A stretch of DNA of 64,000 bases from an uncultured virus (IMG/VR IMGVR_UViG_3300011547_000001). Taxonomy: Duplodnaviria > Heunggongvirae > Uroviricota > Caudoviricetes. Positions 3,763 to 63,201 of the stretch are shown piece after piece. The position numbers and the translations under genes are program-made. Below the pieces are notes generated by a model that saw only the letters and a program-made list of their open reading frames with translations, was not told where the DNA came from and searched no databases. Position 1 is the stretch's first letter, and every line of letters starts with the position of its first letter. The stretch is taken from the IMG/VR virus record IMGVR_UViG_3300011547_000001; one strand, given 5' to 3'.

Positions 3763-5123
3763 TTAACGCAAGGCTTGAAGTTGTGCAGGGATGAGGTTGA
3801 GTTCGTGGTTGGCCAGGACACTGGTGTAATGCTCCACCTCTTGCAGGCGGAAGTCATTGCCGCTCATCATCCAGCCAAAGAAACGATGAATCACGGTGTT
3901 GTCGTACCAAGGTTTCAACTTGTCGTTGATCTTGACCAAGTTCTCCAGGTCTTTGACCAACTCAGCTTTTGCCTTGTTGTCCATGTTCTTGTCTTCGCGC
4001 AGCTTGGCAATCATCTGCCGCAGCGCGTCATCGAAACGACGATGGTCGGCGTTGTACACACCGGCATAACCGCGCGAGAAGTAGTTGAACAAGTACATGA
4101 AGGTGAAGATGATCAGGCCGCCGGTAATGAGCACGATAGCTGGCACGCCCACGATAATCGCGGACAACAGGCTGGGGAGCGTCATGAGTCCGATGAAGAT
4201 GGTCTGCACCGCGGCGATCAGGATACCGCTCAGTACTACTTCGATGCAACCGGTATCCACCATGATAGCGATGGCCGCAATGACGTCTTTTCCGAAGCCC
4301 ATGCGAATGGCGTACATATCAGCCACTACTTCGGAAGACATGCGCTCCACACCAACCGACAGAGCGCGAGAGGTATTGCGCTGAGAGGTCAGTTTCCCGA
4401 AGTACATGATGACTGCTTTGGCGTCTGGATCATTTGCAATCACTTGGAGTTCGGACTGTTTCTTTTTGTCCAAATCCAGAATAGAAGCAATATCCTGCAA
4501 CACCACTACACGGTCTTCGGTTCGTTCCGAATTGGTGTAGAAGTGAAGCGCGGCTTTAGCCAGCAGGTTATCGGCACAGGCGGTGGCCAGCATCATGCAC
4601 GCGCCGAAGCAATGACCTTTCTCATGGGCAAGGGCGCCTGCCAGCAACCGATGGAGCGGAACGCCGTACTTCTGGACCTTATCCTTGGAGAAATAAGAGT
4701 TCAGGTTACGATTGATTCGCAGCTCAANNNNNNNNNNGAGCCCGTCACCTTACCCGTTTTATAGTCGATGCCACCTTTGAAAACCTTCTCGGTGTTCTGG
4801 GTGAACCAACGATAGAGCGTGCTCTGAGTGGATTTCAGCAGCTCATCCGCATACTCGCTGTTCAGTACATGGTTGGGGGAGAAGTACGCCACGTCAACCG
4901 ACAGGTTACCTGAGTCGACGATCTTGAGCGTGATGTTATCAAACCCGGTGTATTCTGCGAGGATCTTCAGGATGCCCTCGCGCGCTTCATAAGCGAGAAC
5001 ACCCATGGCATCGATATGCTGTTCCAGGTGGTCGCTCATCTTGCGGGCGAAGTCTTCGTTCTGGAAGTCGATGAACTCCAGCCCTCCAACTCGCCACTTG
5101 GTCAAAAAATCCATCGAAATCAT
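3763..5123 (-). CDS. Membrane-associated HExxH zinc-metallopeptidase-like protein (M48/HtpX-like), interrupted by an N gap
   Basis: ORFs 4701-5123 and 3763-4647 join across the gap at ~4728-4737. Motifs ALAHEKGH and EVVADMYA, plus two hydrophobic segments. Confidence 0.6.
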
Positions 5124-15712: not shown

Positions 15713-18021
15713 TTACGCCGCGAGCGAGCAATGAGAGTCCCACGTCTTGTGCGTTTTGCGCTTGTTGGCAAATGCAACGACGCGTTTCTTATCGCAGTCA
15801 CGATGCTGTTCAATATCCACACAGACTGGATAGACGAACCGAGGGGTAATCCGGCCGTCGAACTTACCACGCAAATCGCGCAGTCGCCCAATGATCTGTT
15901 TGTTCCTTTGAATAGAGAACACAGTGTGAAAACAAACAGTAGTAACCAGTCCAGGAATGTCCTTACCTGTCCCGCAACTACCCGGCGTGGTGATGACGAT
16001 TTCGTGCTCGAGATACTTCGTCGGGTTCTTCTTGTCGAGTGTCCCCAAATAGGTATCAAAATCCATGTCCGGATAACGTTGCTTAAATTTATCCTTCATG
16101 ATCTGGCACATCTTGATCAACGTGAAGAAGTAGAGACACTTAGTCCCAGGCTCCCGCACATCCAAGTAGAACTCCTTGAACGCCTTGTCGGCAATCTCAA
16201 AGTAATAGTTCGTCAACATTGGAGAGTTCAAGATGCACGTTTCGTACACGATGTCGCTGTAACCGCCCATCTGCTTCGTCTTGATCTTGAACCGCTGGAG
16301 ATCCAGCTGGTACAGATACGCAAACGTATCGATATAGTTCTCTGCCTCAGCCTCTTTAAGCCGCATGTGAATCGGCAGCATGGCTTTGTACATCTTGTTC
16401 ATGAACAGGTCATCAGAGATGAGTGTTGCGGACAAGAGCAGGAACTTCTCAACGTTACCATAAAGCATGCTGACGCACACCTCGTGGAACGATTCATGGC
16501 CTTCGTCGATAATGCGGAACCCAGGCTGAATCTTGCGCATGATCTCGTCGAGGCACATGGCATCTGGATCGTTTTTGGTGTTCCTCAGGTAACCGGAAAT
16601 CCTCGTGGTAGGCAGAATGATGATCTTCGGGTCGATCCTGCCAGATTCGATTGCTTCTGCCAGCAACGGCAGTCCCATTTCCCACACGACCACATCCCCT
16701 TCTTCCATCTCCAATTGCTTGTCGATGTCATTCAGCCAGGTCGTGATGTAACGAGGCTGGATGGTGATGATGGTGCGCATGCCCAGCATGACCATGGTGT
16801 ACAGGGACATGTAAGTGTTGTGGGTGACGACGTAATCTTTGATCACGTAGAGCCGGCTTTCGTGCGCAACGGAAATGCACTTGGTCTTGGCGCGGTAACT
16901 CTGAGCGACACTGACGATCTTTAACGACAGATCATCGAACGTCATTCCTACCAGCTCATTGACCTTCTCGTCGAGCGTAAACAGTGACGCCGGGTCTTTG
17001 TGCCGAATAACGACTTTGTGCGCATGTTCTTTGCCCGCGCGGTATGCAATTCCACCCAGGGACCAGACCAGTCGCTGGACGGTTTCGGCACTTCTGCGAT
17101 ACGGAGTGGAATACTCGATTGAACCATCGAGCTTAGGCTGAGCGCCGCGGTCAAGAAGCCCGCGGAGAAGGGCGAGCCGTTGACGATGAGAACCTTCAAG
17201 GTATTTATCTCCCAGGATGCGATCAGTCCAGCCGATCAGGTAGGGTTCGACGATGTCAGCACGATCGGGCTGCTGTTCGGATTCCGTGAGTGGCACGTAC
17301 CAGTTGCCGTCGTCAGGATCCGTGTCCTGAATACGGGCACTGTTAACCGTCTCCCATTTACCACCGACACCCAGCTTAGCTTGCCAGAGATGCTCAGGGC
17401 ACGTAACAGCCGTTCTGCCGTCTTCAAACGTCACACGCAGTGTAGGAGTCACCCCTTGCGGATAAACGCCTGTAACGGCCGTATACGAGCCGTCAGGGGC
17501 CATCACATGATCGCCTACCTGGATTTCCCCCATGTTCTTCCAACCACCCGGTACACGGATGGGGGTATCTTCGGTTAACGCCTTGCCTTGACCTGTGGCT
17601 GCGTTGTTGACTTTAATCGGGCGTGGGTCTAACTGATAGTTGATCCACTCCACCTGGTCTTCACNNNNNNNNNNGGAGTCTCAAACGCCTTCTTCAATTT
17701 GAAGGTGCAGCGCTTCCCCTGAATAACAGGTTCATCCACGATCTCAATCCTGGATGAGTTGTAACCTTTGTAAGCCGCTGCCTCCAGGAATTCTTTCAGC
17801 AGACTAGCAGGGATTCGGTATTCGGTTTGGTCGTGGTTAGACCGAGCGAACACATGAGACGGTTTCCAAATAGACCGGTTAGATCCTGGAATCCTTTCTC
17901 GTTTCATTTTGTACAAATGGGCTCTACAAAAGGGACGGATTACCTTGTCTTTAAATTCCCCGTAGAACCCGAATATGCGCAAGTAGTTGTGCGCTTTACT
18001 TATCGTGGCCGTACATCGCAT
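15713..18021 (-). CDS. Superfamily 2 (DExH) helicase with intein (phiKZ gp75-like), N gap near the 5' end
   Basis: Walker A ATGQGK|T split by the intein, IIDEGH, LLSAT, QIIGRLR. ORFs 17629-18021 and 15713-17653 join across the gap. Confidence 0.85.
16817..17581 (-). mobile_element. Intein (255 aa, Ala1, class-3-type W-C-T signature, degenerate LAGLIDADG) in the helicase Walker A motif
   Basis: GK|ALTEDTP ... TCPEHLW ... KTKCISV ... VVTHN|T. Confidence 0.9.
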
Positions 18022-18079: not shown

Positions 18080-20092
18080 TTAGGAGACGCCGTGCTGGAA
18101 GAAGCATTCAAGCGGACTTGGCTGCCGATCTTTTACCATCATGGTCCTTGGGTTGTTCAACACGTTCTGCTGCTTCTCGAACATCATGAGGCCACCGCCA
18201 CCACGATTCTCGATACAACTGATGAAGCTAGCAAAGTATTTCTCACCAGGGCCGTTCGCCAGCTTATACGACAGCTTGGCTGGATCCTTGGTAAGTGCAC
18301 ATGCGAGAATGGTCTCGATGTGGATAATGTTGATACCCTTGGTTTCGTGGTTGATCAGCGTCCAGAATTCGCCCACTACCTCGCCAAAGATCTTCGGGGT
18401 AACGGACTGTTTCCGCCAGGCGTTGTTACGCTTGTTGAACGTCAGGAAGTTTTCTACACGACTGCGGTGAGCGTCGAGATCTTCACGGGTGTACGGGAGC
18501 ACGAAGATCGGCTCCAAGAAGTTCCACTCCGAGAGGTCAACCGAAATGAATCGTTTGTCCTCAACGGTCCAGCCTTTCTCCAGGACATACCGCAGGAAGC
18601 CCATAGAAAAGCGTGCGTGGCGAGAAGATACCGACGTCACAGCAGGATGCTGTTGGGTAGTAGTACCACCCATCATGACGTCTTCAATTTCGTACTTGAA
18701 CGTAACCTCCGAGAAGTACGGTAGGTTGTCCAACGAAACTTCATCCAGCGCATCGAGCGATTTGAGGTCTGCCAATTCCTTGGCAATACCAGCCCTCAGC
18801 ACCATCTGTGTTCCTTCTCGACAGATGTCTTTCGTCAGGAAGATTTCATCCCCGTTCGACGAAATGATGTCCTTATCCCGATTGTGCGGTACGAACTTCT
18901 TCGCAGTCGCATTTCGGATAAAGTGCTTGGTACTCAGCATCTTTTGACCCAGTGGGTTACAGATGGTGGTACCGGAGTACATCCCCACGTTTGCGTCGCG
19001 ACGCATCATCGTGTTATATGGGATGTGGGCTTTCATCGCACCGTAACATCTACCACACGGCGCTCCGCTCTTCCCATTTCGACAGAACGAGACACTTCGA
19101 ACGGATACAACATCACCCGCTTTGAGTAGCTTGGCGGCCTTGGCGTCGATCAACGCAGTCGAACCGTCCTCCAACTGACGGTACTTGCCCATGAGCGCAG
19201 CAGCCATCTCAGCGCAGGTCACACGGATAGGTACAACGTCCGTGCTACCGCAGTCGGTTTGGTGATCGATCGAATGGAGTACTGCCCCGAAGATGTGAAT
19301 CTTGCGGTGGAACCATTCAGAGTCTTTCAGTGCCTTACCGTTAGAGATGAGCGACTTACCAGAGCCCCGGCTGTCCCCCAATGAGTCAGCCAGGTTAACA
19401 ATGCCCTCGGCGTAGTTACTTCGAATGGCGTTGGGTTGGATCTGGTTACCGAGGTCGAATACCTTACCTCGGATGCCGGCCGTTTGATACGCCTGGTTGA
19501 TACTCACACCACCCGTACGGGCCAACAGTGCCACGGTATTGTTGTTCAGGCTTGGCGCCGTCTTGATGTAATCGCTGAACAGCACTTCGCCTTCGTCGAT
19601 ACTGATTTCTTCGTTGAGTACCTTCTCACGGATCTCAACGATACCAGGGTCATCGACCAGCTCTACCACGGACTCAGCCTGAGCTGAAACAATAGATCGT
19701 TCCGTCATGACCACGATCATGTTGTTCAGCTTGGTCTGCCAGTTGTAGACCATTACCTTGATGTAGTCGTTCTCGACTGGATCGTCGATGTGAGGCATGA
19801 CCTCACCAAGGATGTAGTCAACCGGAGTCGCCAGGGTCTTGTCGTTGTAGACAATATCCCGGCCAGTGCCGTCGTACGCGGAAGGAACCAGCTCTTTGAT
19901 CGAGTACGGGACGTCATTGTAGCGCCGATGCACGATCAAGCCTTGCCAAGTCAACATCAAGGCATAGGTGTCAGTGAGGGCCTTTTCGCCGAAGTCGTCC
20001 ACAACCTCGGCAGCCGCCCTGAACCCACGCCATCGTAACACCTGTGCTTCCGTGAGGTTTGCGAAGTCTCGTAAGTTCACCATCATCGTCAT
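18080..20092 (-). CDS. Non-virion RNA polymerase beta-prime C-terminal subunit (phiKZ gp74-like)
   Basis: TDCGS, RSVSFC, PCGRCYG, LGQKMLSTKH, IHIETIL. Confidence 0.85.
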   Translation of the reverse strand: MTMMVNLRDFANLTEAQVLRWRGFRAAAEVVDDFGEKALTDTYALMLTWQGLIVHRRYNDVPYSIKELVPSAYDGTGRDIVYNDKTLATPVDYILGEVMPHIDDPVENDYIKVMVYNWQTKLNNMIVVMTERSIVSAQAESVVELVDDPGIVEIREKVLNEEISIDEGEVLFSDYIKTAPSLNNNTVALLARTGGVSINQAYQTAGIRGKVFDLGNQIQPNAIRSNYAEGIVNLADSLGDSRGSGKSLISNGKALKDSEWFHRKIHIFGAVLHSIDHQTDCGSTDVVPIRVTCAEMAAALMGKYRQLEDGSTALIDAKAAKLLKAGDVVSVRSVSFCRNGKSGAPCGRCYGAMKAHIPYNTMMRRDANVGMYSGTTICNPLGQKMLSTKHFIRNATAKKFVPHNRDKDIISSNGDEIFLTKDICREGTQMVLRAGIAKELADLKSLDALDEVSLDNLPYFSEVTFKYEIEDVMMGGTTTQQHPAVTSVSSRHARFSMGFLRYVLEKGWTVEDKRFISVDLSEWNFLEPIFVLPYTREDLDAHRSRVENFLTFNKRNNAWRKQSVTPKIFGEVVGEFWTLINHETKGINIIHIETILACALTKDPAKLSYKLANGPGEKYFASFISCIENRGGGGLMMFEKQQNVLNNPRTMMVKDRQPSPLECFFQHGVS

Positions 20093-22411: not shown

Positions 22412-22735
22412 ATGCCCATTGTCAACTACGACGCTTCAAAAGAGGTGTACTACACCGAACGCTTCAAAGCGCTGGTGCGGTCGCAGAAGGAATTTCTCCT
22501 GCGTTACGCTACCACGATTACCCTTACTAATCGTAATCGCGTGTACGCATTCAAAAACGATTTCTATCGCCTACTCAGGGACAACAAAGTCCCACAGCAT
22601 CTCTGGTGGACGGTGGCTTTCCTGAATGGGATTGAAGACCCCAACCAGGACATTACCGGTCTTCACATAATTTACAACGTCGACCAAAGCGTACTGGATA
22701 AATGCCTAGTGCGTAGTAATACCAAAGCTGGTTGA
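22412..22735 (+). CDS. Small protein, weak resemblance to LysM/T4 gp53-like baseplate wedge proteins
   Basis: 107 aa, RBS AGGAG, motif LWWTVAFLNGIEDP. Confidence 0.5.
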   Translation: MPIVNYDASKEVYYTERFKALVRSQKEFLLRYATTITLTNRNRVYAFKNDFYRLLRDNKVPQHLWWTVAFLNGIEDPNQDITGLHIIYNVDQSVLDKCLVRSNTKAG

Positions 22736-25726: not shown

Positions 25727-27310
25727 TCAATCGTTGATTTTGTGGATCAGGTCCATGAACTCTGCTTTGATTTCAACATCGATCTCAAGTGGGAACAGAG
25801 CACCTGGTTTAACTCGCTGGTAAACCTCGGGGTTGTCCAACACCCCATATTCCAGATTGGACTGCCACATCCCGTTACCTAACAGCTGGAGAAACTGGGT
25901 TGCGGATACCAAGGCTTCGTTGAACGACTTGCCCTCGTTATTACGAGTCTGGATTTCACAGATGGACGCCAGGTAGGTCCTGTCATCCGTTGTAAGACGC
26001 AAACCATCCGACAGGCTACGCATGCCATTAGGATCATGGATAGCACCGAGGATAGAAGGAAGGTACCGATAGCCGCGCTCGCTCAGTTTTACCTGTGCCA
26101 GCACGATGGCCGACATGAGCTGATAATAACGGCAGGCATCCCAGATAAATGGGGATACGACCGGACCATCTAATTCATACGCCAGTTGCAAAAGTTTGCG
26201 TGTATGGTCTCCCAAATAGAAGTCCCAGTTCTTGGGGAGATTGTCGTAAACACGCTCAACCAGAGCTTCCCGTTCGATACTCAGGCCAATGCACTGGTGT
26301 TTGAAGCGATCTACCGTCCGTTCTACTTCGTTCTCGTCGAACAGACCGAAACTGAAGTACTCGGCTTCTTTCACTTCGTCGGAAGACTTGATCTCTTCGC
26401 TCAGCTGGTATTTATCCAGCATGGAACGTTTGTCTTCGTCGTCGTCGGTTGGACGCTCTTTGTCCCGGAAGGTTGCACCGCCGGTTTCGTGCAGGAGCAT
26501 CGCCGAGTTGATAGCCGTGGCGAGGTTCTTTCCTTCATCGGTTTCAGGGATCATCGCGCAGCACAGACGGCTGAACAAGGTGTTGTACAGAACCTTGTAA
26601 ACGAAGTTCTCGCGACTGGTCACGCTTTCAACCTGTATCGGTGTACCGCGTTTATCAAACGCGTAACGAACATAGGTCGTCAGCTTACGCCAACCAGGCA
26701 GGTTGGTGATGTGCGCGTTGTCTTTGATCAGCTTACCGCAGACCAACTCAGCCTGCCCAGGCGCCATGTACTGATCAAACCGTGAGATCAGACCGAACAC
26801 GATCGGATAAGCACCAGCGCGGGTTACGTAAGCCAGTTTGGCCAGCTCAACGTAATCCTGATCCATGATCGTGGTTTCTTCGGGGTAGTCACCCTTACTG
26901 GCCGCTTTACTCAGATCCTTTGGAATCTTGAGATGGCGGTCAGAGTACTGGATGAACGAGCAGTACTTGTGCACGTTGATCAGCGTGTAGATCTCGTTGA
27001 GGATCGGCTCAATCAGTTTGAGGTCTTCTTCGTAGAGGGTGAACTTGCCGTTGTCAACAACAGCATGTGCTTTCTCGTACAGCTTGAAGAGTTCTTCTTG
27101 CTTCTTGACGTCCATGGTTGCGTCGACGTACTCGTTAAAGCAGTCGAAGAGGTTGCCTTCTGGTTCCTNNNNNNNNNNNNNNNNNNNNNNNNNCACGCGC
27201 TCCAGCTTGATGCTGGCTTTACCTGTGAACTTGATAACGTGCGCATTGAAGGAAACGATGATGTGTTCAATCTGTTTCTTCGAACTGCGACTGATGTCAA
27301 TGGAAAACAT
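25727..27310 (-). CDS. Non-virion RNAP promoter-specificity (sigma-like) subunit (phiKZ gp68-like)
   Basis: About 527 aa with an N gap and an early-promoter motif upstream. Position fits the core block. Confidence 0.65.
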   Translation of the reverse strand: MFSIDISRSSKKQIEHIIVSFNAHVIKFTGKASIKLERVXXXXXXXXXEPEGNLFDCFNEYVDATMDVKKQEELFKLYEKAHAVVDNGKFTLYEEDLKLIEPILNEIYTLINVHKYCSFIQYSDRHLKIPKDLSKAASKGDYPEETTIMDQDYVELAKLAYVTRAGAYPIVFGLISRFDQYMAPGQAELVCGKLIKDNAHITNLPGWRKLTTYVRYAFDKRGTPIQVESVTSRENFVYKVLYNTLFSRLCCAMIPETDEGKNLATAINSAMLLHETGGATFRDKERPTDDDEDKRSMLDKYQLSEEIKSSDEVKEAEYFSFGLFDENEVERTVDRFKHQCIGLSIEREALVERVYDNLPKNWDFYLGDHTRKLLQLAYELDGPVVSPFIWDACRYYQLMSAIVLAQVKLSERGYRYLPSILGAIHDPNGMRSLSDGLRLTTDDRTYLASICEIQTRNNEGKSFNEALVSATQFLQLLGNGMWQSNLEYGVLDNPEVYQRVKPGALFPLEIDVEIKAEFMDLIHKIND

Positions 27311-31449: not shown

Positions 31450-32088
31450 TTACTCCTGAACTTCCTGCTTGGCACCGCCGAGCGGGTTGTTGTCAGGACT
31501 GGCGATATCGAACAGACCTTTGGCGCGATGGTAGTCAATCGCAATGTAGGTCTTGTCCAAATCGTTCCTGGAGCGGAACGAAAGTGCATTACCGAAACAC
31601 TCATGGTAATGCGCGTGTTTGAGAACACGCTTATCGTCCACAGTGTTGAACGTCAGCACACCATGACGAGCGCGGCGATAGAAGGGGTTAGCTTCGCCGA
31701 TGCCCGTACACAGTTTGTTGAATTCGCCACCGTAGCCCTCGGTCTTACCGTCGAGGTAGTCCTGTTGCATTCCCGGGTGGGCCATGATGAAGTCGCGCAT
31801 GAAGCCACGCGCCCCCTGCAAGCCCGTAGGAGTGCCCAGATAACCAATGTCGAACTGACCTACGTAGTCACCCTCCGATTGCGTTGTAAGGCGCTTGGAG
31901 AGTTCCCAGGCCCTGGAGTTGAAGAAGGTGTTGAAACTGTCCAGAGCTTTGTCGGCTTGTCGAGCAAGCCAGCCACCCGCTCCCTTGAATGCAGCGGCAC
32001 TTTGGTGCACGTACTGACTGTAACGCTGCATTTGGGTGTCGGTATAGCTACCTGACATCGCGTAGGTAAACGCGTGTGCACTATTCAT
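31450..32088 (-). CDS. Conserved hypothetical core protein downstream of nvRNAP beta-prime
   Basis: 212 aa, ATGA-coupled. Confidence 0.7.
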   Translation of the reverse strand: MNSAHAFTYAMSGSYTDTQMQRYSQYVHQSAAAFKGAGGWLARQADKALDSFNTFFNSRAWELSKRLTTQSEGDYVGQFDIGYLGTPTGLQGARGFMRDFIMAHPGMQQDYLDGKTEGYGGEFNKLCTGIGEANPFYRRARHGVLTFNTVDDKRVLKHAHYHECFGNALSFRSRNDLDKTYIAIDYHRAKGLFDIASPDNNPLGGAKQEVQE

Positions 32089-33716
32089 AGCTCTATCAAC
32101 TCGGTCTGCTTCATCAGGGTGTTCAAGTTCATCAGGTTAGTCGCAGTTTGACCCGCGTAGTCACCCACCTTGAACGGTACGTTCTTATCCAGTACCTGAT
32201 GATGTCCGAAGCCGCCATATGCGCGCGCCTTCGATTCATTGTCAAATACCATCACGACGTATTCGTTATCCCCGTCGAAGTCGGCGTTTTGTTGCTTACA
32301 CGCCAGAATCGGAATCTTGATACTTTCGTCTTCAAGGTCCCGGTTTACTTTCAGGAAGAAGCAACGCAGACTCAAGTACTCAATGGACGGGTTACGACCC
32401 GACTGGATCAAGCACTTGCGACTTTCCTCCATGTCCCGGAAGAACTCATCAATCAGCGGATCGATATAATACGCTGCGAGGTTAATTCGTTCCTGGGCTT
32501 TGTACGGTGTAAACCCACGCCGATACAAGAACGACGTGATGTGAATCTCCAGCATCGACAAGCACATCTTCCACGGTACCAACAACTGGTCCGTATCGAT
32601 GATGCCGGTCTGAGACGTAATAACGGAACGGCCTGTGAATGGCAGGGCGCCCGACACCACGTGTTTACGGTTAATCGCTGGCTTGTGGAACAGGCCCTTG
32701 GGGTTATTCACCTTGCGGTACTGGTCGGCAAGCAACACAATGTTCTTGCCCACGATTTCCACGTTGCGGTGTGCTTCGGCTTCGCTCAACTTACCAACAG
32801 AGCTGGACTTGGCAGTATCCGCAATGGCCAGGTAAAGCGCAGCCGTCGCCGGCTGGTGGGCGTAGGAGTAAATCTCTTTGCCCGATTTTTCCAGTACCGT
32901 GCTGTAACGGCTCGGCACTTTGATGTAGTCACAGAACGCGATGTTCTTGTACTTCAGATACAACGCGTACAGCTCTTGAGCTTCCTGGTTAGGCTTGCTG
33001 AAATAACGACGGCCATTCCCTACCAGGATCCATTCCATCAACGCGTCAGCGTTATCATAGAACGAATTGAGATCGAGTTCGTGGATCTGTAGCTCTTCGA
33101 GCATGTTGTTGATAATGACGCGGGTGGTGTTCGTTTGCTTCTTGACCTGTTTCCGATAGATAGGGTCAACGAAGTAACGTGGAATGCACACCTTGGGACT
33201 ACCGATCGAGATCCCATTGAAGAAACTCGAGAGGAAACCCGGGTTAATGAATTTCTTAACCCCCTCAGGACATCGTAGCCACAACCCAACATCTTCACCA
33301 CGGTCCAGGAATACCTGCGCCTTGTTACCACAGTCAGGACAAGTTTTACCACTGCCCAACAAGTAGTTACCACGCAGTCGACGAGGACTGTCACAACCAC
33401 ATGACGCAACGGTATCGAACGAGTTACCAGAGAACTCCATACGAGTCAACCTGGCAACCTCTTCTTGATGGTCCTCCAAGTTGAAATCGAAGTCGTTCAG
33501 GTAAACGCGATCATGCCGACTCGTGTCATGCAGGTAGTTGTAGTCTTCGAAGTCGTGATACAACGGCCTGGAGTAAGCTGGGTTATCCGCCAACGACTTA
33601 CCGAACTTGTCCGCGTAGGACTGGAAGTACGGAAGTGGGTTGAGTGCTTCTGCGCTAAACTTTGTCAGTGCTTCAACCGCCAAGGCGTTGGAGGGAGTAA
33701 GCTCCGGAAATATCAT
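32085..33716 (-). CDS. Non-virion RNA polymerase beta-prime N-terminal catalytic subunit (phiKZ gp55-56.1-like), intron-free
   Basis: Catalytic NADFDGD, zinc finger CGC...CPDC, GRSVIT, GRNPS. Own ATG at 33716 with GGAG RBS. Confidence 0.9.
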   Translation of the reverse strand: MIFPELTPSNALAVEALTKFSAEALNPLPYFQSYADKFGKSLADNPAYSRPLYHDFEDYNYLHDTSRHDRVYLNDFDFNLEDHQEEVARLTRMEFSGNSFDTVASCGCDSPRRLRGNYLLGSGKTCPDCGNKAQVFLDRGEDVGLWLRCPEGVKKFINPGFLSSFFNGISIGSPKVCIPRYFVDPIYRKQVKKQTNTTRVIINNMLEELQIHELDLNSFYDNADALMEWILVGNGRRYFSKPNQEAQELYALYLKYKNIAFCDYIKVPSRYSTVLEKSGKEIYSYAHQPATAALYLAIADTAKSSSVGKLSEAEAHRNVEIVGKNIVLLADQYRKVNNPKGLFHKPAINRKHVVSGALPFTGRSVITSQTGIIDTDQLLVPWKMCLSMLEIHITSFLYRRGFTPYKAQERINLAAYYIDPLIDEFFRDMEESRKCLIQSGRNPSIEYLSLRCFFLKVNRDLEDESIKIPILACKQQNADFDGDNEYVVMVFDNESKARAYGGFGHHQVLDKNVPFKVGDYAGQTATNLMNLNTLMKQTELIEL

Positions 33717-33748
33717 GCCCAACTCCAAAAAATCAAAAGGCGGAATAA

Positions 33749-33773
33749 TGCGTGGGGGGAGAAACCCCACGCA
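33749..33773 (-). terminator. Hairpin between chmA and nvRNAP beta-prime
   Basis: tgcgtgggg-ggagaaa-ccccacgca. Confidence 0.6.
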
Positions 33774-33803
33774 CTTCTTTAAACACCTAAGCCGCCGGGC
33801 GGC

Positions 33804-35843
33804 TTTGATGAACGAAACGCCGTTGCCGTAGGCCATGCCCAGGCTTGGCTGGTTGGGGTTGTTGGAACCGGCTGCCGCCATGGTGGCCAGGCCGATGCCA
33901 GGGGCAAAGACCAGGTTGCTGGAGCGGTAGGAGCCGATGTTGTTCGCCACGTTCAGTTGACCGATGCCGTCCAGGGATTGACCCAGGGCCGCCATGAAGT
34001 CCGGTGCCCAGATGTAAGGCTGAGCGAAGCCGTTGATGTGTGGATCGGTGGAGAAGTTCGCGCCGGTCATTTCCAGACGCAGTTTCTGGCAACGCTGTTT
34101 GAAGCCCTCGCGCGGATCGGTGCCGTACTGGGTACCCAGGAAAGCTTCGATGCCGGCCAGGTTGTTCTTGCCCTTGATGTGCGAGATCATCATCTCGTCC
34201 ATTTCCTGGGTGTTGAACGACTTGTCGCCCAGACGACCACGGCCGTTGACCGCGATCATGCCGGTAGGCAGCAGGATCGGCTTGGTAGGAGTCCAGCCGC
34301 CCTTCTTGAGGTTTTCCTCGATGGTGGCCGACATCTTGTTGTTCGACATGGCGTCGATCAGCTTGACGACGGTCATCACTTCCTGGTGGTTCGAGCTGGT
34401 GTCAGCCAGACGTTGCAGGAAGTTGTGGATCGAGGCGTGTGGACCGGCCGGCAGAACGTTGACCTGGAAGGTAGCGTGCGGGCTGACGTTCATGCGGATC
34501 CAGTTGGACACGAAGTCGGTGTCGCTGAGCTTCTTGACGTCCAGGATATCGTTCTGGGTCCGCGCGGCCGCCCACGGGGTCGAGGACAGCATTTGCTGGA
34601 TGCGCAGTTCCATGTCCGCCAGCGAACCACGAGCACCGACGCAAGCCTTGCGAATCGCTTCGGCCCAGGTGTAGTGGTTGTTGGTGCACATCAGCAGGTA
34701 CAGGCCGTAGAAGAACGGGTACAGACCGCCGTTGTAGCCCATCATTTCGCCGGCGGTGACTTCACCCATGGTGATCACCGGACGCAGAGGACGGTAGCCA
34801 TTGCCGTAGCCGCCAGCCATGCCACCCATGAAGGATTGCAGTTGGGCCAGTTGATCCGGACGGCTGGTCATCATGTAGCGCTGCCAGTCTTCGAACGACA
34901 CCGCGGTCAGGGACACGGCACCGGTGACCCGGCAGATGTCCTTGGAGTTGACGTTGAAGTCGCGGTTGTAGTTGCCGTTGTTGCCGTTCGGGAAGATGGT
35001 AGTCGCGGTGACTTCCATGTTGTCCGCGGTCAGGGTGCGGCCTTTGGTCACACGACCGCTGATTGCGGTAACGCGAGCTTCGGCGGCGCCGCCCTTGTCG
35101 TACGGCTGTTGAGCGTTCTGGAACGGGTTCGGCAGCGGGATCTTCTGCGCGACCATTTCCAGGGTGGACTTGACCAGCAGCGCTTCTTCCCACTCGGCCG
35201 CGATGTCCAGGGCGTTGTTGCGCGGTTGATCCTTGATGTCACCGGCTTCTTCGTGCTTGAGCATTTCCAGGTCGATCACCCGCAGGCTGACGACGGAAAC
35301 GTTCTTGACGTTCTTGTCTTCGGCCTTGCGTTGGTAGTGATCGCGCAGACGCTTGTAGAAGTCGCCGTTGGCGTACTGGACCGGGGTGAGCGGGATGCTG
35401 ACCTGGCTGGCACCGAAGACGCCATTACCGGCGAAGTCGATACGCTCGCTGTTGATGGTCAGGTTGTCTTTGGAGAACAGGAAGCCCGCGACGTACATGG
35501 TGTCGCCGACTACCACGTCGAGGCCGATGCCTGGCAGAACAGGCGAGACCGCGCTGGTGAATTCCTGGAGGTTCGGGATGATCTTGCGTTGCAGGTCGCT
35601 GATCGAAGCTTTCTTCTGCGCGTCGTAGTACTCCTGAAGAGTCTTCAGCGCGTCGCTGGCTTCGGCCAGGTTGCGGTTGTCGGAGGTCATCGAGGACAGG
35701 CGGAACAGACCAGACAGCCCACCTTGAACGGTACCCGCGGTGTTACCCAGGGTGGAGGTGTAGTCACCGGCCTGGGATTGCTGTTGTTGCTGGGCATCGT
35801 TGTTCCACGCTGCGTTGGTTGCGTCGTCGCTGGACAAGCTCAT
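33804..35843 (-). CDS. chmA: Chimallin, major phage-nucleus shell protein (679 aa; the expected stop reads AAA in this sequence)
   Basis: Directly upstream of nvRNAP beta-prime, with an early promoter, AAGGA RBS, strongly biased codons and flexible N- and C-terminal segments. Size fits chimallin. Confidence 0.8.
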
Positions 35844-38409: not shown

Positions 38410-40492
38410 TCAGTGTTCGTCCGATACCAGACGAGTTACTTTGCTGTTCATGATGTACAACCCCAAAGACTCCAGGATTGCGTAAATGGATTTCAAGTTC
38501 TGACTGATGATCAAACGCGTGTCTACGATTGGCAAGATCTCTTTCGGGATACCACCCATCGATTTGATCATGTCTGTCGGAATATAAACCGACGTCAAGT
38601 TACTCCGTCCAGTGACATAGTCCTGGAACTCTTGACCAAAGACCGTGTGTCCAACCGAGGTGAAGTAGTTCTTCATCTTGGTCTTGTTGCTCAGGTCCAG
38701 GTTAACCTTGTACGCTTTATAAGGCAGCGTTGGAGCATCCCCGAACTTCTTGGCGAACACAGACTGCCACAGTTCGTGGTAGTAGTAGATCGACGAATCA
38801 GGGTTGGTATAAGCGGCTTCTTCCTTGATGGTGTTCTTGGTCAGCCAGCTATAACCACCAGATTCAATCTCTTCCACCAGCGCACGTTCGATGTTACCCA
38901 CTTGATGCAACAGCTCGGCGGCGTCCAATTGCTTACGACCGTACAACGCTTCCAGTACGTCACGCATGAGTTTGTTGGTGAACTCACGTACTTTAAGCGC
39001 GATCTTGATACCGCGGAGGTGAACACCTTTCTGTTCTAATTCCGGTTCATCATGGAGGATACCTTCCAACATCAACTGAAGCGCGTAGTAGTGTTTAGAC
39101 ATCGACGTGGTTACGTACGAGCTAAACAGGAACTCGTTCTTCATGTTTAGACGATAGCGGTACTTCTTGATGACGTTCATGTTCGTACTGAGACGAGCAT
39201 GTTGGTCAACCGCGATCGAACGGATGAAGTAGGTCATTACTCCGTTGAAGCAAAGACCGTCTTGCTTACGCTCAGGGTCAACATAATCGTCAATGATCAT
39301 GTCAACACTGTAAATCATGGAGTCGGTGTCAGACGTCAACACGTTCTCGCGCACCAGCTCCTTGATACTGAATACAGCAGGAGGCGGTGTATCAGCTTTC
39401 AGGAATGCGCCAATGAAATCAGCCCACTTTACTTCCAGCCCGATGTGATAGGCGTTAAGGTAGGCGATCTGCGGCTTGGTGGCTTCCTTGCCCAGCTTAG
39501 TAATACAGAGGATCTCGTAGTCACTGTNNNNNNNNNNTAGTTTCGTCAATGACCTCCGGGAATGCCGGGATATGACACCAATCATTGAAGAACTCTTTCA
39601 TCAGACTCTGGTTGGTGGTATACAACCCACGCAAGTCCATCGAGCAAAGCAGGATGGTCAGTTCCAGTGGTCTGAGGTTTTCCAGATACAGCCGGATCGC
39701 GCCCATACCAGTTGGGTCGTTCCAATAGTAACTGCTGCACCGCTTAACCATGTCCATGACTTGGTCAACGGTGGCGTGCCGCATGTTGTATTTCTTGAAG
39801 ACCGCTGCGATTTCGTCTCGACGGGCAAATGCCAAGGTGCTGATGAATAGTTCCATCGTCTTGTTGTAACTCAACAAGAGACGGTTGCCCGTGATTAATC
39901 GTTCGTTGATGATGTTGGCGGTCGAAGTTACTGCACGGCAAGTACTGGTCAGCGAGGTGTGACCAGACTTATTGTGAAGCGGTGTGCCCGAAGAAGACAT
40001 TGCGCCCGACTGGGCGTTGTTGAAGATCTTCAGCGCTTTCTGGATTTCGTCGAATGCAATACGGGCGTCTTTATCACCCGCAGCGATAGCACCCTTCATC
40101 CGGCCTTTGTACAAGCGACGGAATTCGATGAACTGGTCAGTACCAATGGCATTGACCGACATCTCTTCGTTACTGTTGGTATACGCCACTAGCGACGGAG
40201 AGAGGTGATAGTTCTTTTCCTCTACGTGAGCGAAGAACTCACGAGCAGGCATTACAACAGCTTCGCGGTCACCGTACTTGTTCTTCTTGAGAACCTTGAA
40301 CTTGGCTTCCTTGAACCCGTTTTTGTTCGGAACGAAGACCTTGGTGCACAGATCTAATACAACGTTGTAATCCCACTTGTAGAAAACAGACAAGTAGGCT
40401 GCGGCCATCAAGTGATAGCCTTCCACCATATTGCGATTCGGCTTATAGTCTACCTGTTGAAAGGGAGACAAATGTTGTTGCATCGCCGTCAT
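38410..40492 (-). CDS. Split family-B DNA polymerase, catalytic C-terminal subunit (phiKZ gp50-like), N gap in the middle
   Basis: Motif B QKALKIFNNAQSG, motif C SDTDS, MSKHY, KGVH. The two ORFs join across the gap at ~39528-39537. Confidence 0.85.
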
Positions 40493-49591: not shown

Positions 49592-52500
49592 TTATGCCGC
49601 TCTTCGATTTTGGAGGATGCGACGACTGCGTTCCCGTTTGGCGTTTTCCAACAAGGTATCGATGGTAAGCGCACGTGAAGCTTCGGGTGGCAGGATCTTG
49701 CTGAGCTTATGAACCTCTGCCTCCAGCCGCAGAGCCAAGATGTTGTCGTTCGTCTTGAGGAGTTCGTCAGTAAGCGCTTGGATGCGATTCTTAACGTTCT
49801 CGAAGAACTGAACGATACTTGGGTCCAGATCTTTCTCGGCTTTGGTTTTACCCATTGCCAACAGGTTCCTGGTGTCCGACAAACCAATGCCGGTAGGAAT
49901 ACCGTACAGTGGCTTGTTAGCCCCGAGCTTGATGAACCAGTACGTCAGGAGCCACGCAATGACCAAGTCGTCGTGTTGCTTAGCGTCGTGGTCAATACGC
50001 CCGCCTTTGGTACGCAGGTTGATCAGCTCATCTGCTAGCTTGTCGTAGTTGATGCCATAACCCGTGTTGAGCACCGCATCTTGAACCAGCCCGTACAACA
50101 CTTCACGCGACTTCGCATGGGTAACGAAACCGAAGTGTTGTTTGAACTTGAGGTAGAAGTTCTTGTTGCGATACGCAAACTTGGTGTTCTGGACTTCCGC
50201 ATACTCCTTCTGGTTGTTGACTGGGTCTTGGTAGATCGTGTTGTAGATACGGGTGAACGGATCCATTCCTTTGGCTGGGAGGGTGATAAGCAGGTTGTCG
50301 ATCATGTGGTGCGCGTAGTTACGCTCAATGACCAGCATGCTGTTCTTGAGTGTCTCCAGCATGTCCACGATAATCGCCGTCACGTCGTCCAGGAAGGCCA
50401 ACGGATAACGACCCACCCCAATGACCCTGCCTGTCTTCATACTTCGAATAATCAGCGTACAGGCGTCCTTGTTGATCGCTGACGACGTATCCACTCCGAT
50501 GAGGAAGAAGTCGTTGTGCTCCTCCTTACCCATCGTCAACAGCTCTTCCTGCGTATGGAAGAAGTCCATGTAGAGCCCGCTACTCTTGTACTCCTTACTC
50601 CACACTTTGTCGCGCTTGATGTTGTTGATGGCTTCACGAGTTTGGTCGTCGAACACACGGTTCTCGCCGTCCTCAACCCACATGAGCAGCAAGTCGATCT
50701 TTGCCTTACTGACACTGAGGTTAAGCAAGTCGATGGTTTTCTTGACCCAGTTCTTGTCCTTACCGAGCTGGAGGTAGTTATAAACCATCGAGACGGATGG
50801 AGCCGTGGTAGGCTTAGGCGACGCTTTCAGCAAGCGCATCCGGAGATGACTTTCGCTGTAGGAGTCGAAGAACTTCTCCCGCCACTCGGTAGCGTCCATC
50901 AGCTTCTTGAACATGAAGTCACCGCTTGGGTGAAGCGTCGTGTTCGGCGTAGTGATGTGCGCAATGCCGTAAGGTTTGCCTTGTTTCCTGGCGTTCTCCA
51001 TCGCCGTCAGTGCGGAAGGTGCACAGCCGTTGATGATCTCTTCGATAAAGCTGATGTAACTCGATTCGTCGTAGATCGTGGTTTCAACTGTGAGACCCCG
51101 ACCCAAGTCGCCCGCAGCATCCCGTCCCATCTGAGGTACAGAGATCGTCATGGTGTTGACTTGGTCATCACCAAACGCTTTATAGTTCAGGTAGTTACCG
51201 GAGTCCTTGTCCCGCCAGGTTGGGTTAACCAGGTAGGAAGGAATACAGGTCCTGATCTTCTTGATCGCGTCAATGAACTGAGCACGGTTGTCACTTTTCA
51301 GTGTGATCAGGTGGGACTTGTAACCACGGCCGTTGATGTACGTCAGCCAGAAGTTGATGACCTGGACCGATACCGTGTTGTGAGTAACGATGAAATCATC
51401 CGTGATGTACAGCTGATCTTCGTTATCCACTTCGATGCAGGTAGCGGGCTTGTCACCGCAGTACTCGATCTTCTCTACGTAGAGCCGGTTGTAGGAATAC
51501 TCGATAGGCGCTTTGCGGAATTTGAAAGGCCAGCAATTGATGCTGTGGTCCTTCTCATCAAGCTCCAACGGCAGGGTAATCTCGACCTTATCCTTCTTCG
51601 TGGTCGCCGTACCGCCCAGGCCGCGTACCAGATAGGTCACCTGGCCTCTCAGGATCTCGTTGTTGCTCGCAAAGACAAACTTGCGGTAAGACGTACAGCT
51701 TTGGTCCATCAAGCCCCTGAGGAGGCTCAGGCGGTCTTCCAGGCTACCTTCCAAGTAGTCCATCGGCAGACCATGCTTGCGATCGAAACGAAGCTCCTCC
51801 CCATCCTTACGTTTGATGAAGAGCGATTCCCCACCATCGTAAACCTCCAGGTGAGCGGGGCAGTGTGCTTGCAGGTGGTCGACCTGAAGACCACTGTGCT
51901 TCTTCAGCAGGATGTCACCGTGGTACGAAGACCCCGCAACCATTTGACCCATGAAGTATGGATCAATTTGCAGATTGCGTTTAGGGTGATCCATAGCCTT
52001 GATCAACGGCACCATGAACCGTTTACGCCCGCCAGGCTGCGCCAGGTCGGTGATCAGCTGTGCAGTGCTGTAGTCACCCCAGCAACCGGTATCGTTGTCG
52101 TGGAGCGTCCAGAGGTGCTCTGCGCCCACCGTAGTGGTGCGACCGTCACTCATGGTGATCTTGTACAGTCGCATCACACCCTGAGTATGAACACCAATGA
52201 CGTTAGCAACCGAACCGTCTTTACTGATAACCTGGTCGCCAGTACGCAGGTCACCCATGCGCTTCCAGCAACCATCCACATCATTGCCAGGTACACGGAC
52301 CTTGGAATCGTCGTCCTGCATCTTGCCCTGCTGACGAGGCATGATCATGAACGTGGTGATGTGGTTCAACCAACTCCAAATGAAACTGATGTTCCCGCGG
52401 TTAGCCATGAACTGAAGTTCTGGCTTGAGGCGACATACTTCCCGCAGGAAGTACCAGAAGTTAGTCCGGCTCTCTTCGTTGATCCAAACCTTTTGTTCGT

Positions 52501-52879
52501 TGGTCAAGTCTTCCGCATAAGGGTCAACGTTTTCCAACATGGGGTTGTTCAGTTGCAGCAAGAACGCAAAGTTCAGAATGCCTTGTTGCCGGAAGACTTC
52601 AGCTGTACGGATAAACGTCTTGTTGGTGGTACTGGTGTGATGACTTGCCCTGTAACGAACAAAGTCCTTGAGGAAACGAACGGTTTTGATGCTGTGCAGA
52701 CTGTCTTCCCGGAAGTGAGCCAGGATCAACTCATCACGGGTTCGTTTGGTAAAGTCAATCCGATTCGCTTCATCGTCAATCAATTCTTCTGGGAGGTTTT
52801 GTGCCCCCAGATACTCTACAAGCTTCGTGGCATATTCCAACTCCGGATTGGGTAGTTCCGTAGCCGACTCCATAAGCAC
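49592..52879 (-). CDS. terL: Terminase large subunit with intein (phiKZ gp25-like)
   Basis: NFWYFLREV, Walker A PRQQGK|T split by the intein, Walker B IYDE, ITTPN, nuclease motifs GVDTS, IERN and HDDLVIAW. Confidence 0.92.
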   Translation of the reverse strand: MLMESATELPNPELEYATKLVEYLGAQNLPEELIDDEANRIDFTKRTRDELILAHFREDSLHSIKTVRFLKDFVRYRASHHTSTTNKTFIRTAEVFRQQGILNFAFLLQLNNPMLENVDPYAEDLTNEQKVWINEESRTNFWYFLREVCRLKPELQFMANRGNISFIWSWLNHITTFMIMPRQQGKMQDDDSKVRVPGNDVDGCWKRMGDLRTGDQVISKDGSVANVIGVHTQGVMRLYKITMSDGRTTTVGAEHLWTLHDNDTGCWGDYSTAQLITDLAQPGGRKRFMVPLIKAMDHPKRNLQIDPYFMGQMVAGSSYHGDILLKKHSGLQVDHLQAHCPAHLEVYDGGESLFIKRKDGEELRFDRKHGLPMDYLEGSLEDRLSLLRGLMDQSCTSYRKFVFASNNEILRGQVTYLVRGLGGTATTKKDKVEITLPLELDEKDHSINCWPFKFRKAPIEYSYNRLYVEKIEYCGDKPATCIEVDNEDQLYITDDFIVTHNTVSVQVINFWLTYINGRGYKSHLITLKSDNRAQFIDAIKKIRTCIPSYLVNPTWRDKDSGNYLNYKAFGDDQVNTMTISVPQMGRDAAGDLGRGLTVETTIYDESSYISFIEEIINGCAPSALTAMENARKQGKPYGIAHITTPNTTLHPSGDFMFKKLMDATEWREKFFDSYSESHLRMRLLKASPKPTTAPSVSMVYNYLQLGKDKNWVKKTIDLLNLSVSKAKIDLLLMWVEDGENRVFDDQTREAINNIKRDKVWSKEYKSSGLYMDFFHTQEELLTMGKEEHNDFFLIGVDTSSAINKDACTLIIRSMKTGRVIGVGRYPLAFLDDVTAIIVDMLETLKNSMLVIERNYAHHMIDNLLITLPAKGMDPFTRIYNTIYQDPVNNQKEYAEVQNTKFAYRNKNFYLKFKQHFGFVTHAKSREVLYGLVQDAVLNTGYGINYDKLADELINLRTKGGRIDHDAKQHDDLVIAWLLTYWFIKLGANKPLYGIPTGIGLSDTRNLLAMGKTKAEKDLDPSIVQFFENVKNRIQALTDELLKTNDNILALRLEAEVHKLSKILPPEASRALTIDTLLENAKRERSRRILQNRRAA
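51377..52321 (-). mobile_element. Intein (315 aa, Met1, class-3-type W-C-T signature, degenerate LAGLIDADG) in the terminase Walker A motif
   Basis: GK|MQDDDSKV ... GAEHLW ... PATCIEV ... IVTHN|T. Confidence 0.9.
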
Positions 52880-62690: not shown

Positions 62691-63201
62691 TTAATCGACA
62701 TCCGTCAGACTCTTGAAGTTATCTTGGTCATCAAACCGCGAAACCATGGTGTTTGGTTTGCAGTCATCACGGAACGTCTCTTCTTGGGTGCCGGCGACTA
62801 CTGTAAGGTAACCTTCTTTCTTGCCAGCACGGTCAGTCANNNNNNNNNNNNNNNNNNNNNNNNNNNNNNNNNNNNNNNNNNNCCGTTGTGAACTTCATGT
62901 TGGTCTGCGTGTAGATCTCGCGGTTCTCCACGCCTTCGGCGCTAGAGTACTTAAACGAGCTGCCCATGTTGTTACCCGCCAGCACAACACGGTGGGAAGG
63001 CGTCTCAAGACTCTTCCCGTACAGAATGGTAAAGATATCAGTGGAAGGGTTTCGACTGACCAGCAACTGCTTACCAGACACGGTCTCACACATCAGCAAC
63101 GTATCTTCCATTTGCAGATGTTGAGGTTTCTTCATATCCGCAACGGCAATCGTTTCAGACAATGCAGCCAGAAAGATCAGTACTACCGAAATCAATTTCA
63201 T
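62691..63201 (-). CDS. Secreted/periplasmic hypothetical protein (N gap inside)
   Basis: Signal peptide MKLISVVLIFLAALSETIAVA. Reading continues after the gap (TDRAGKKEG...LTDVD*). Two Cys visible. Confidence 0.6.

Follow-up and report, generated by a model that had tools for sequence, protein, structure and literature searches.

Whether a phage has fused its nuclear shell protein to a subunit of its RNA polymerase, or whether one wrong base makes it appear so, is the question raised by a single ORF in the window, i.e., the whole 64,000-nucleotide stretch analyzed here from an uncultured virus (IMG/VR IMGVR_UViG_3300011547_000001). As recorded, the ORF occupies positions 32085–35843 of the minus strand and consists of chimallin, a linker, and the nvRNAP β′-N subunit (1252 aa, ~139 kDa). 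The first-pass annotation had described chimallin as joined to the NADFDGD-containing subunit through a 30-codon linker, which the ORF list confirms: codon 680 (33804–33806) is AAA, and the plus-strand base at 33806 is T. Read in minus-strand order (33806–33804), this codon is one base away from TAA, and the relatives all have TAA or TGA there. The bases also confirm that a T-to-A change at plus-strand 33806 would restore TAA. The best explanation, though far from a secure one, is that the AAA codon reflects a base-call or consensus error that put T in place of A at plus-strand 33806.

Identity of the two halves

The N-terminal half (33807–35843, minus strand; codons 1–679, 74 kDa) is chmA, encoding chimallin, the nuclear shell protein, and ends in GVSFI in the ORF translation. 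It matches the profile phrog_4795, "nuclear shell protein", with an E-value of 2e-106 over profile positions 49–674 of 677. A profile of its clade matches phiPA3 PhuN weakly (E 0.0016), and PF25677 is precomputed on 51 chimallin homologues. The chimallin half and the linker gave no match in the local Pfam copy, and a phmmer search of the chimallin half against the PDB found nothing. An AlphaFold model of this half has a pLDDT of 77.1 and a pTM of 0.79. When it was compared with the PDB, nine matches were obtained with E ≤ 0.001, all of them chimallin chains from 201phi2-1, phiPA3, and Goslar (E 1e-22 to 1e-18, target TM-score 0.67–0.79); the next match has an E-value of 0.036. The predicted fold thus matches these solved chimallins at a sequence identity of 12–14%, and the model assigns the N-terminal half the two-domain chimallin fold. 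Residues 647–679 are extended in the model, with pLDDT below 50.

The polymerase part starts at residue 710, the methionine of MIFPELTPS, and corresponds to a gene of its own (32085–33716, minus strand; 543 aa, 62 kDa) for a phiKZ gp55-like nvRNAP β′-N subunit. It matches phrog_2987 (E 2e-139), PF00623 (RNAP Rpb1 domain 2; 32.7 bits against a cutoff of 25.3), and chain A of PDB 7OGP, PHIKZ055 (E 2.4e-32). The identities first proposed for both halves, ChmA and the catalytic β′ subunit of the nvRNAP, are therefore borne out by profiles, PDB matches, and the model. The catalytic Mg-binding motif NADFDGD lies at 32268–32288 (fusion residues 1186–1192), and its counterpart in phiKZ gp55 is reported as DFDGD, residues 417–421 (PMC8287921). 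The gene retains its own ATG at 33716–33714 of the minus strand and, 6 nt before it, a GGAG ribosome-binding site (33723–33726), as had been noted previously; GGAG or a close variant occupies the same column of all 34 aligned spacers.

Codon 680 and the spacer in related loci

The closest named system is Pseudomonas phage EL (NC_007623), with which the whole window is collinear over EL 1–48 kb. Its gp023 (nuclear shell protein) and gp024 (RNA polymerase beta subunit) have the same gene order and strand as in the window, with 43–44% identity for chimallin and 61% for β′-N. The spacer between them is likewise 87 nt long and in the same frame, with hairpin, U-tract, and GGAG arranged in the same way. 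However, EL has TGA at the homologous codon, its spacer contains a further two in-frame stops, and its polymerase gene is interrupted, with gp024 and gp026 flanking gp025. In phiKZ, gp54 (ChmA) and gp55 (nvRNAP β′-N) are also adjacent, judging by gene numbers, but they are separate proteins. The closest relative found, L008, is a 5.7-kb contig of an uncultured phage from IMG/VR that shares 71% identity in chimallin and 82% in the first 200 residues of β′-N. It has the same 87-nt in-frame spacer, its last two chmA codons are likewise TTC ATC, and a hairpin lies in the same place, yet it reads ATC TAA where the window has ATC AAA, and a second in-frame TAA follows eight codons on. Among 5.8 billion protein clusters, the nearest chimallin is likewise 71% identical.

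Sixty-five related loci were collected, of which three were dropped, two because they are truncated (L019 and L049) and one, L041, for want of a C-terminal match. All 62 remaining loci, each including the chimallin C-terminus, have a stop at the codon aligned to 680. Consistently, 31 of 31 chimallin homologues (38–72% identity) terminate at the residue aligned to I679, within one position. A backup stop lies 1–9 or more codons further on in 27 of the 33 distinct spacers; since the homologues nevertheless all end within one residue of the aligned position, even short C-terminal extensions are not seen. The alignments thus show that codon 680 itself was ancestrally a stop. The first-pass annotation, which had considered a stop very likely ancestral and had proposed a comparison with sister genomes, is upheld on this point, as every related locus compared has a stop there.

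Downstream of codon 680, the 87-nt spacer (33717–33803, minus strand) is read as linker codons 681–709, and residues 680–709 of the ORF are KAARRLRCLKKCVGFLPPRIIPPFDFLELG. The chmA and polymerase genes are adjacent in 58 of 58 related loci containing both, and a stop precedes the polymerase gene in every one of these, whereas in the window the upstream frame is open. This requires a spacer that keeps the frame of the polymerase gene and contains no backup stop, a combination found in none of the 33 distinct relatives: the 10 in-frame spacers all contain backup stops, and the six spacers without backup stops are all out of frame. If codon 680 is misread, this spacer is a coincidence, whereas a selected fusion would require it. 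By simple arithmetic, an open 30-codon linker arises by chance with a probability of ~0.25 and is not improbable in itself.

The RNA of this region is predicted to fold with an MFE of −39.5 kcal/mol, against −27.8 kcal/mol for shuffled sequences (z = −3.7), and none of 200 shuffles folds as well. Two hairpins are present in the fold, as previously proposed. Hairpin 2 (33747–33775, minus strand) consists of an 11-bp stem, with a U-rich tract behind it, and is conserved across the clade, with compensatory changes at 15 of 17 pairs in 34 aligned sequences. It is called terminator-like and no more, because a simple terminator scan scored it on the opposite strand only. The linker also has a lower GC3 than chmA (0.60 vs. 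0.82). Given the conserved hairpin 2, the U-rich tract, the retained GGAG and ATG, and this GC3, the "linker" retains the character of an intergenic region.

Hairpin 1 (33784–33810, minus strand) overlaps the lost stop and is longer than was claimed earlier, since CAUC and GGUG flank an A·A mismatch between 33806 and 33788 (CAUC-A-AAGCCGC / GCGGCUU-A-GGUG). As recorded, the stem comprises seven perfect pairs and four more across the mismatch. With A at plus-strand 33806, position 33806 would pair with A33788, giving the stem CTAAGCCGC/GCGGCTTAG and 12 continuous pairs. The perfected stem had been offered as an argument for an ancestral stop; the pairing holds, but the argument is weaker than stated, because in L008 the corresponding hairpin leaves the U of UAA bulged and unpaired.

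Uniqueness of the fusion and quality of the record

A HMMER search of 1.84 billion representatives yielded no second protein matching both halves among the best 150 of 249 matches; the one long match, P0145, is an unrelated repeat protein. None of 51 homologues is longer than 694 aa. A protein collection searched for other copies returned the window's own protein only (1 member, 1 contig), in a search that is weak for distant forms, having missed four chimallins of 689–694 aa within its length range. Megablast of the window produced no match among 50,697 phage records, no relative was confirmed when viral contigs were scanned with the single junction protein, and the exact 27-base pattern beside 33806 is absent from the genome contigs and viral contigs. 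At the level of sequence, the fusion is thus shown to be unique to the window record, being neither common to relatives nor recurrent, one or the other of which would be expected of an evolved fusion. The literature search found no paper linking chimallin, gene fusion, and RNA polymerase, and nothing relevant on stop-codon readthrough in Chimalliviridae.

The window contains five runs of N (10, 10, 25, 10, and 43 bases), one of which breaks the DNA polymerase gene up into two reading frames, as fits a scaffolded draft. The runs of N suggest short-read scaffolding, and the record probably derives from Illumina-type reads. For such reads, sequence-specific errors are reported up to 10 nt downstream of a GGC and also at inverted repeats, the latter specified as adjacent and longer than 8 bp; the miscalls mostly copy the preceding base and can cause false SNPs (Nakamura 2011, PMC3141275). 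On the plus strand, GGC occurs at 33798–33800 and again at 33801–33803, so that 33806 lies three nucleotides after it; the position also comes after the inverted repeat, and the recorded T, where A is expected, repeats T33804 and T33805.

Other properties of the record speak for the base as it stands. No run of N comes within 5 kb of position 33806. Among 32 EL orthologues compared, chmA alone has a frame running into the next gene, and no premature stop was found in these conserved genes, which argues that the general substitution error rate is not high. Thirteen sequencing runs partially match the window, the best holding 0.20 of the sampled words, and none is listed as RNA. Four of them were compared with the window, giving nine placed records, none of which spans 33806; the nearest covers 33827–34013. 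Three of these four runs, which come from different studies, contain fragments matching the window at 99–100% identity, implying that the phage is real and circulating. The earlier preference for an error over a real change is accordingly plausible, given that the draft is gapped and the site has the sequence context of Illumina errors, but unproven, as the placed records miss 33806.

Competing readings of codon 680

If the base is miscalled, the phage would carry an ordinary Chimalliviridae cassette, i.e., chmA, an 87-nt spacer with hairpin and ribosome-binding site, and the β′-N gene, which would make two separate proteins; the miscall would have arisen in a low-coverage, gapped short-read scaffold. 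This reading is favored because of the universal stop in relatives, the uniqueness of the fusion, and the error-prone context in a gapped draft, and the base at 33806 is thus probably wrong. Against it, plausible errors are very few beside the real substitutions that separate this phage from its nearest relative (~29% of chimallin residues), so that an error prevails only if loss of the stop is strongly deleterious. Such an effect is expected from the 201phi2-1 chimallin, whose free C-terminus is described as the docking segment CTS2, the last ten residues (622–631): this terminal segment docks on a neighboring protomer, and its deletion abolishes self-assembly in vitro (PMC9365700). ChmA is also reported to be essential (PMC10541120). 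Since CTS2 is needed for assembly in 201phi2-1 and ChmA is essential, a real stop loss should be strongly selected against, provided that CTS2 maps by analogy onto the EL-like clade. The recorded chain runs 573 residues beyond I679 and thus leaves no free docking C-terminus.

A real, recent stop loss in the phage lineage or population, tolerated, mildly deleterious, or transient rather than adaptive, is possible but doubtful. The base would then be as recorded, consistent with its distance from the runs of N and with the 32 otherwise intact genes. Ribosomes would pass codon 680, and free β′-N would still be made from its own GGAG and ATG. Transcripts ending at hairpin 2 would give a short ChmA tail on a non-stop mRNA, which would probably be tmRNA-tagged, and read-through transcripts would give a 139-kDa ChmA-β′N protein. 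The linker is unadapted, with hairpins, U-tract, and ribosome-binding site intact and the A·A mismatch uncompensated, which fits a very recent event. Moreover, N-terminal fusions to phiKZ gp55 (EcoRI-sfCherry2-gp55) are reported to be still imported into the nucleus (bioRxiv 10.64898/2026.09.21.753271). On the other hand, none of the 62 loci has lost or shifted the stop, pointing to strong selection for a free, exactly placed C-terminus, in line with the docking role of this segment. Were the allele strongly deleterious, its frequency among virions would be much too low for a consensus to capture it. The site context also favors a miscall.

A functional fusion, in which chimallin-β′N would anchor the catalytic subunit to the nuclear shell beside free β′-N from the internal start, is very unlikely. 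Its appeal lies in the frame that stays open through 30 linker codons into the polymerase gene, in the clade-wide adjacency of the two genes, and in the need for the nvRNAP to enter the chimallin compartment (bioRxiv 10.64898/2026.09.21.753271); anchoring could, for example, seed nuclear delivery of the polymerase or position transcription along the lattice. Yet the open frame carries little weight, as it was selected by how the finding was picked, the fusion is a singleton without clade support, and its linker shows no sign of adaptation. Chimallin is made far in excess of the need for a polymerase subunit, which also counts against such a role. In addition, no chimallin with a free C-terminus would be left, and the segment is needed for the lattice in 201phi2-1 (PMC9365700). 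The suggestion in the first-pass annotation that the fusion, if real, would tether the polymerase to the shell has nothing to support it. Were it real and functional, the fusion would be relevant to how RNA polymerase comes to be in the phage nucleus: part of the catalytic subunit would be incorporated in the nuclear shell or delivered by it, the compartment wall would be covalently linked to the transcription machine it must import, and the chimallin C-terminus would prove tolerant of a large cargo.

Three further candidates were rejected: AAA is a stop in no genetic code; AUC AAA G is not a known slippery heptamer for a programmed frameshift, and the other two frames both hit a stop within 7–10 codons past it; and a templated mutation at the quasi-palindrome would perfect the stem, whereas the observed change breaks one pair. 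The ORF is a singleton whose open frame hinges on a single base, located in an error-prone context of a gapped draft, and its annotation as a fusion protein should wait for supporting reads. The comparison also brought out the structured, covarying spacer found clade-wide between chmA and the polymerase gene, which would be well suited to 3′-end mapping.

Architecture of the fused open reading frame

The minus-strand ORF 32085..35843 is a single frame of 1252 codons in the ORF listing of the window. Residues 1–679 are the chimallin (ChmA) part, which ends in ...AYGNGVSFI, and residues 680–709 are the linker (KAARRLRCLKKCVGFLPPRIIPPFDFLELG). Residue 710 is read as the methionine of MIFPELTPSN..., the start of β′-N, the catalytic subunit of the non-virion RNA polymerase (ATG at 33716–33714, minus strand), and a GGAG motif lies 6 nt upstream of it (33726–33723, minus strand). 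Codon 680 (33806–33804, minus strand) is AAA and becomes TAA when plus-strand position 33806 is read as A. The predicted RNA fold of 33815–33714 contains two minus-strand hairpins: hairpin 1 (33810–33784; CAUC-A-AAGCCGC/GCGGCUU-A-GGUG), with an A·A mismatch exactly at 33806/33788, and hairpin 2 (33775–33747), with 11 pairs and a U-rich tail. The folding energy of this region is −39.5 kcal/mol, compared with −27.8 ± 3.1 in shuffles, and was equalled by 0 of 200 shuffles. Sequence reading and the RNA fold thus confirm every element of the first-pass annotation here, i.e., one ORF, AAA at codon 680, GGAG-ATG, and two hairpins.

The first half matches PHROG 4795, “nuclear shell protein”, with an E value of 2e-106. 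Its AlphaFold model (pLDDT 77, pTM 0.79, 32 aligned sequences as input) matches nine solved chimallin chains from 201phi2-1, phiPA3, and Goslar (E 1e-22 to 1e-18, target TM-scores 0.67–0.79), and the next structure match has an E value of 0.036. Since the sequence identity to these solved chimallins is only 12–14%, phmmer returned no match for the chimallin half in the PDB, and the clade profile matches phiPA3 PhuN weakly. The second half matches PHROG 2987 (E 2e-139), Pfam RNA_pol_Rpb1_2, and PHIKZ055 in PDB 7OGP (E 2.4e-32). It contains NADFDGD (fusion residues 1186–1192), the counterpart of the DFDGD described as binding the catalytic Mg in phiKZ gp55 (PMC8287921). The PHROG, Pfam, PDB, and model-structure matches bear out the proposed identity of the halves as ChmA and the NADFDGD-containing subunit.

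Codon 680 in related phages

The chimallin–polymerase gene pair also occurs in EL-like, RisingSun-like, and Vibrio jumbo phages (tblastn, 50,697 phage records). Pseudomonas phage EL is collinear with the window over its initial 48 kb, and, as in the window, 87 nt separate the end of the chimallin gene from the polymerase gene, with the frame shared; unlike the window, EL has TGA at the codon homologous to 680. Scans of IMG/VR and JGI metagenome contigs gave 63 related loci, or 65 with EL and RisingSun. The chimallin C-terminus is included in 62 of them (L019 and L049 are truncated, and L041 has no C-terminal match), and in all 62 a stop lies at most two codons from the homologous position; the polymerase start is also present in 58, 78–113 nt downstream. 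These loci are redundant and reduce to 33 distinct spacers. The closest relative, IMG/VR contig L008, is 71% identical to the window in chimallin and 82% in the polymerase N-terminus; its TTC ATC TAA corresponds to TTC ATC AAA in the window, with an 87-nt spacer in both. A large protein collection holds 51 chimallin homologues, all of 626–694 aa, the best being 71% identical. Of these, 31 were aligned with the window protein (fragments and some close duplicates were excluded by eye from the table), and in all 31 the last residue aligns with I679 or with the residue before it. Given a stop in every locus and C-terminus compared, and the TAA of L008, comparison with relatives places an ancestral stop at codon 680 beyond reasonable doubt, as had been proposed.

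A word-indexed junction search among proteins of 688–2191 aa matched solely the window’s own 1252-aa protein (one member, one contig of 167,934 bases). This search was insensitive, missing four known chimallins of 689–694 aa; therefore, a 653-residue query with the junction at its centre was run against 1.84 billion representatives in an exhaustive HMMER search. Among the best 150 of its 249 matches, no protein matches both halves: chimallin-type matches cover query 1–299 at the C-terminal end of proteins of at most 690 aa, and polymerase-type matches, from query 331 on, lie N-terminally in proteins of at most 547 aa. One long match among these 150, P0145 (1274 aa), was rejected as a second fusion, being an unrelated repeat protein. 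No report of such a chimallin fusion was found in the literature searched.

Origin of AAA at codon 680

Among the public sequencing runs listed, the best share of sampled window words was 0.20. Nine contig pieces from four runs were matched to the window and none spans 33806; the nearest, a 187-base contig from run X2 identical to the window, ends at 33827. Pieces from X1, X2, and X4, runs of three studies, are 99–100% identical to the window over 170–242 bases. Because near-identical contigs recur in runs from three studies, the window phage or close strains, to judge from these matches, are widespread at low abundance. Across 32800–34500, contigs 99–100% identical were seen in aquatic metagenome, freshwater metagenome, and ‘organism A’ runs at depth 3–4, and the fourth run (wastewater) holds relatives 88–95% identical.

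A base-call or consensus error is, by a modest preference, our explanation of AAA at codon 680. The plus strand reads GGC GGC TT[T] G at 33806, directly after an inverted repeat; from the relatives, TT[A] is expected. GGC up to 10 bases upstream is described as a trigger of Illumina sequence-specific errors, as are inverted repeats; most miscalls repeat the base or two just before, and false SNP calls can result (Nakamura et al. 2011, PMC3141275). The GGC triplets and the copied base at 33806 would fit such errors, and the inverted repeat (7 perfect pairs, plus 4 across one mismatch, as recorded) may fit as well. The window also contains five N runs, at 4728–4737, 17665–17674, 27169–27193, 39528–39537, and 62840–62882 (10, 10, 25, 10, and 43 bases). 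That at 39528–39537 interrupts the DNA polymerase gene (orthologous to EL gp021) and leaves its two parts (40480..39542 and 39525..38413) in different frames. The N runs resemble scaffold gaps whose length is inexact; masking is a possible alternative.

A real, recent, and non-adaptive stop loss is a possibility to which we give appreciably less credence. Position 33806 is more than 5 kb from every N run, and true differences from the nearest relative vastly outnumber plausible errors. Among 32 EL orthologues compared, chmA alone runs in frame into the next gene, and premature stops are absent from all conserved genes. Yet tolerance of such a variant is difficult to reconcile with a C-terminus fixed to the residue in 31/31 relatives, though 27 of the 33 spacers would cap an extension within a few codons. 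CTS2, the C-terminal docking segment, comprises the last ten residues of 201phi2-1 chimallin, and its deletion is reported to abolish in vitro self-assembly (PMC9365700); ChmA is reported to be essential (PMC10541120). From general bacterial biology, chmA transcripts ending at hairpin 2 would be stop-less, leading to tmRNA tagging of ChmA. A functional fusion tethering the polymerase subunit to the shell is improbable. One feature speaks for it: the window spacer is in frame and without backup stops, a combination found in 0 of the 33 relatives (10 in frame, all with backup stops; 6 without, all out of frame), but this property was given little weight because it is what drew attention to the locus. 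Other explanations share the remaining probability.

Intergenic spacer and neighboring genes

Alignment of the 33 distinct spacers and the window yields a consensus hairpin of 17 pairs at the place of hairpin 2, 15 of them with compensatory changes, and a conserved U-rich tract and then GGAG-ATG lie 3′ of it. GC3 is 0.60 in the linker vs 0.82 in chmA. The covarying hairpin, the tract, GGAG-ATG, and the lower GC3 agree with the first-pass view of the linker, which by these features is an intergenic region. Hairpin 2 (33747–33775) is retained throughout the EL-like clade, and its loops are often UUCG or GNRA-like (34 sequences). In Chimalliviridae, hairpin terminators are described as numerous and functional, with 132 termination sites in 201phi2-1; the chimallin gene is not named there (PMC11512511). 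Hairpin 2 is a putative terminator, left unscored on the gene strand by a simple terminator scan; another possible role is as an RNA-stability element, in either case for an early gene expressed at very high levels. Hairpin 1 is present in L008 too, but the U of its UAA is a bulge. Thus, although the stop base would perfect the stem in the window, as claimed, this is weak support for a stop.

The window β′-N gene (32085–33716, minus strand) is contiguous and encodes 543 aa, as RisingSun gp29. In EL (locus L066, 28226–31274), it consists of two parts, gp024 (480 aa) and gp026, with gp025, a ‘putative replication protein’, in between; EL gp026 residues 31–89 match window 32282..32106. phiKZ gp55 is described as gp55 and gp56.1 fused by splicing (bioRxiv 10.64898/2026.09.21.753271; also the PDB chain name). 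An intron or mobile insert probably interrupts the EL β′-N gene and is missing from the window phage. Residues about 245–615 of EL gp039 (RNAP β; L066, 44708–47818) are missing from the window orthologue (18080–20092) and resemble window 51368–52327 (large terminase ORF 49592–52879) and 16814–17605 (ORF 15713–17653) at 29–38% identity. This extra segment looks like an intein-type insert whose sites differ between phages; a Pfam search of the three ORFs concerned gave no match. A weak tblastn match to EL gp036 at 22457–22684 (minus strand; E 2e-7, 32% identity), with one in-frame stop, could stem from a small gene in decay or from chance.
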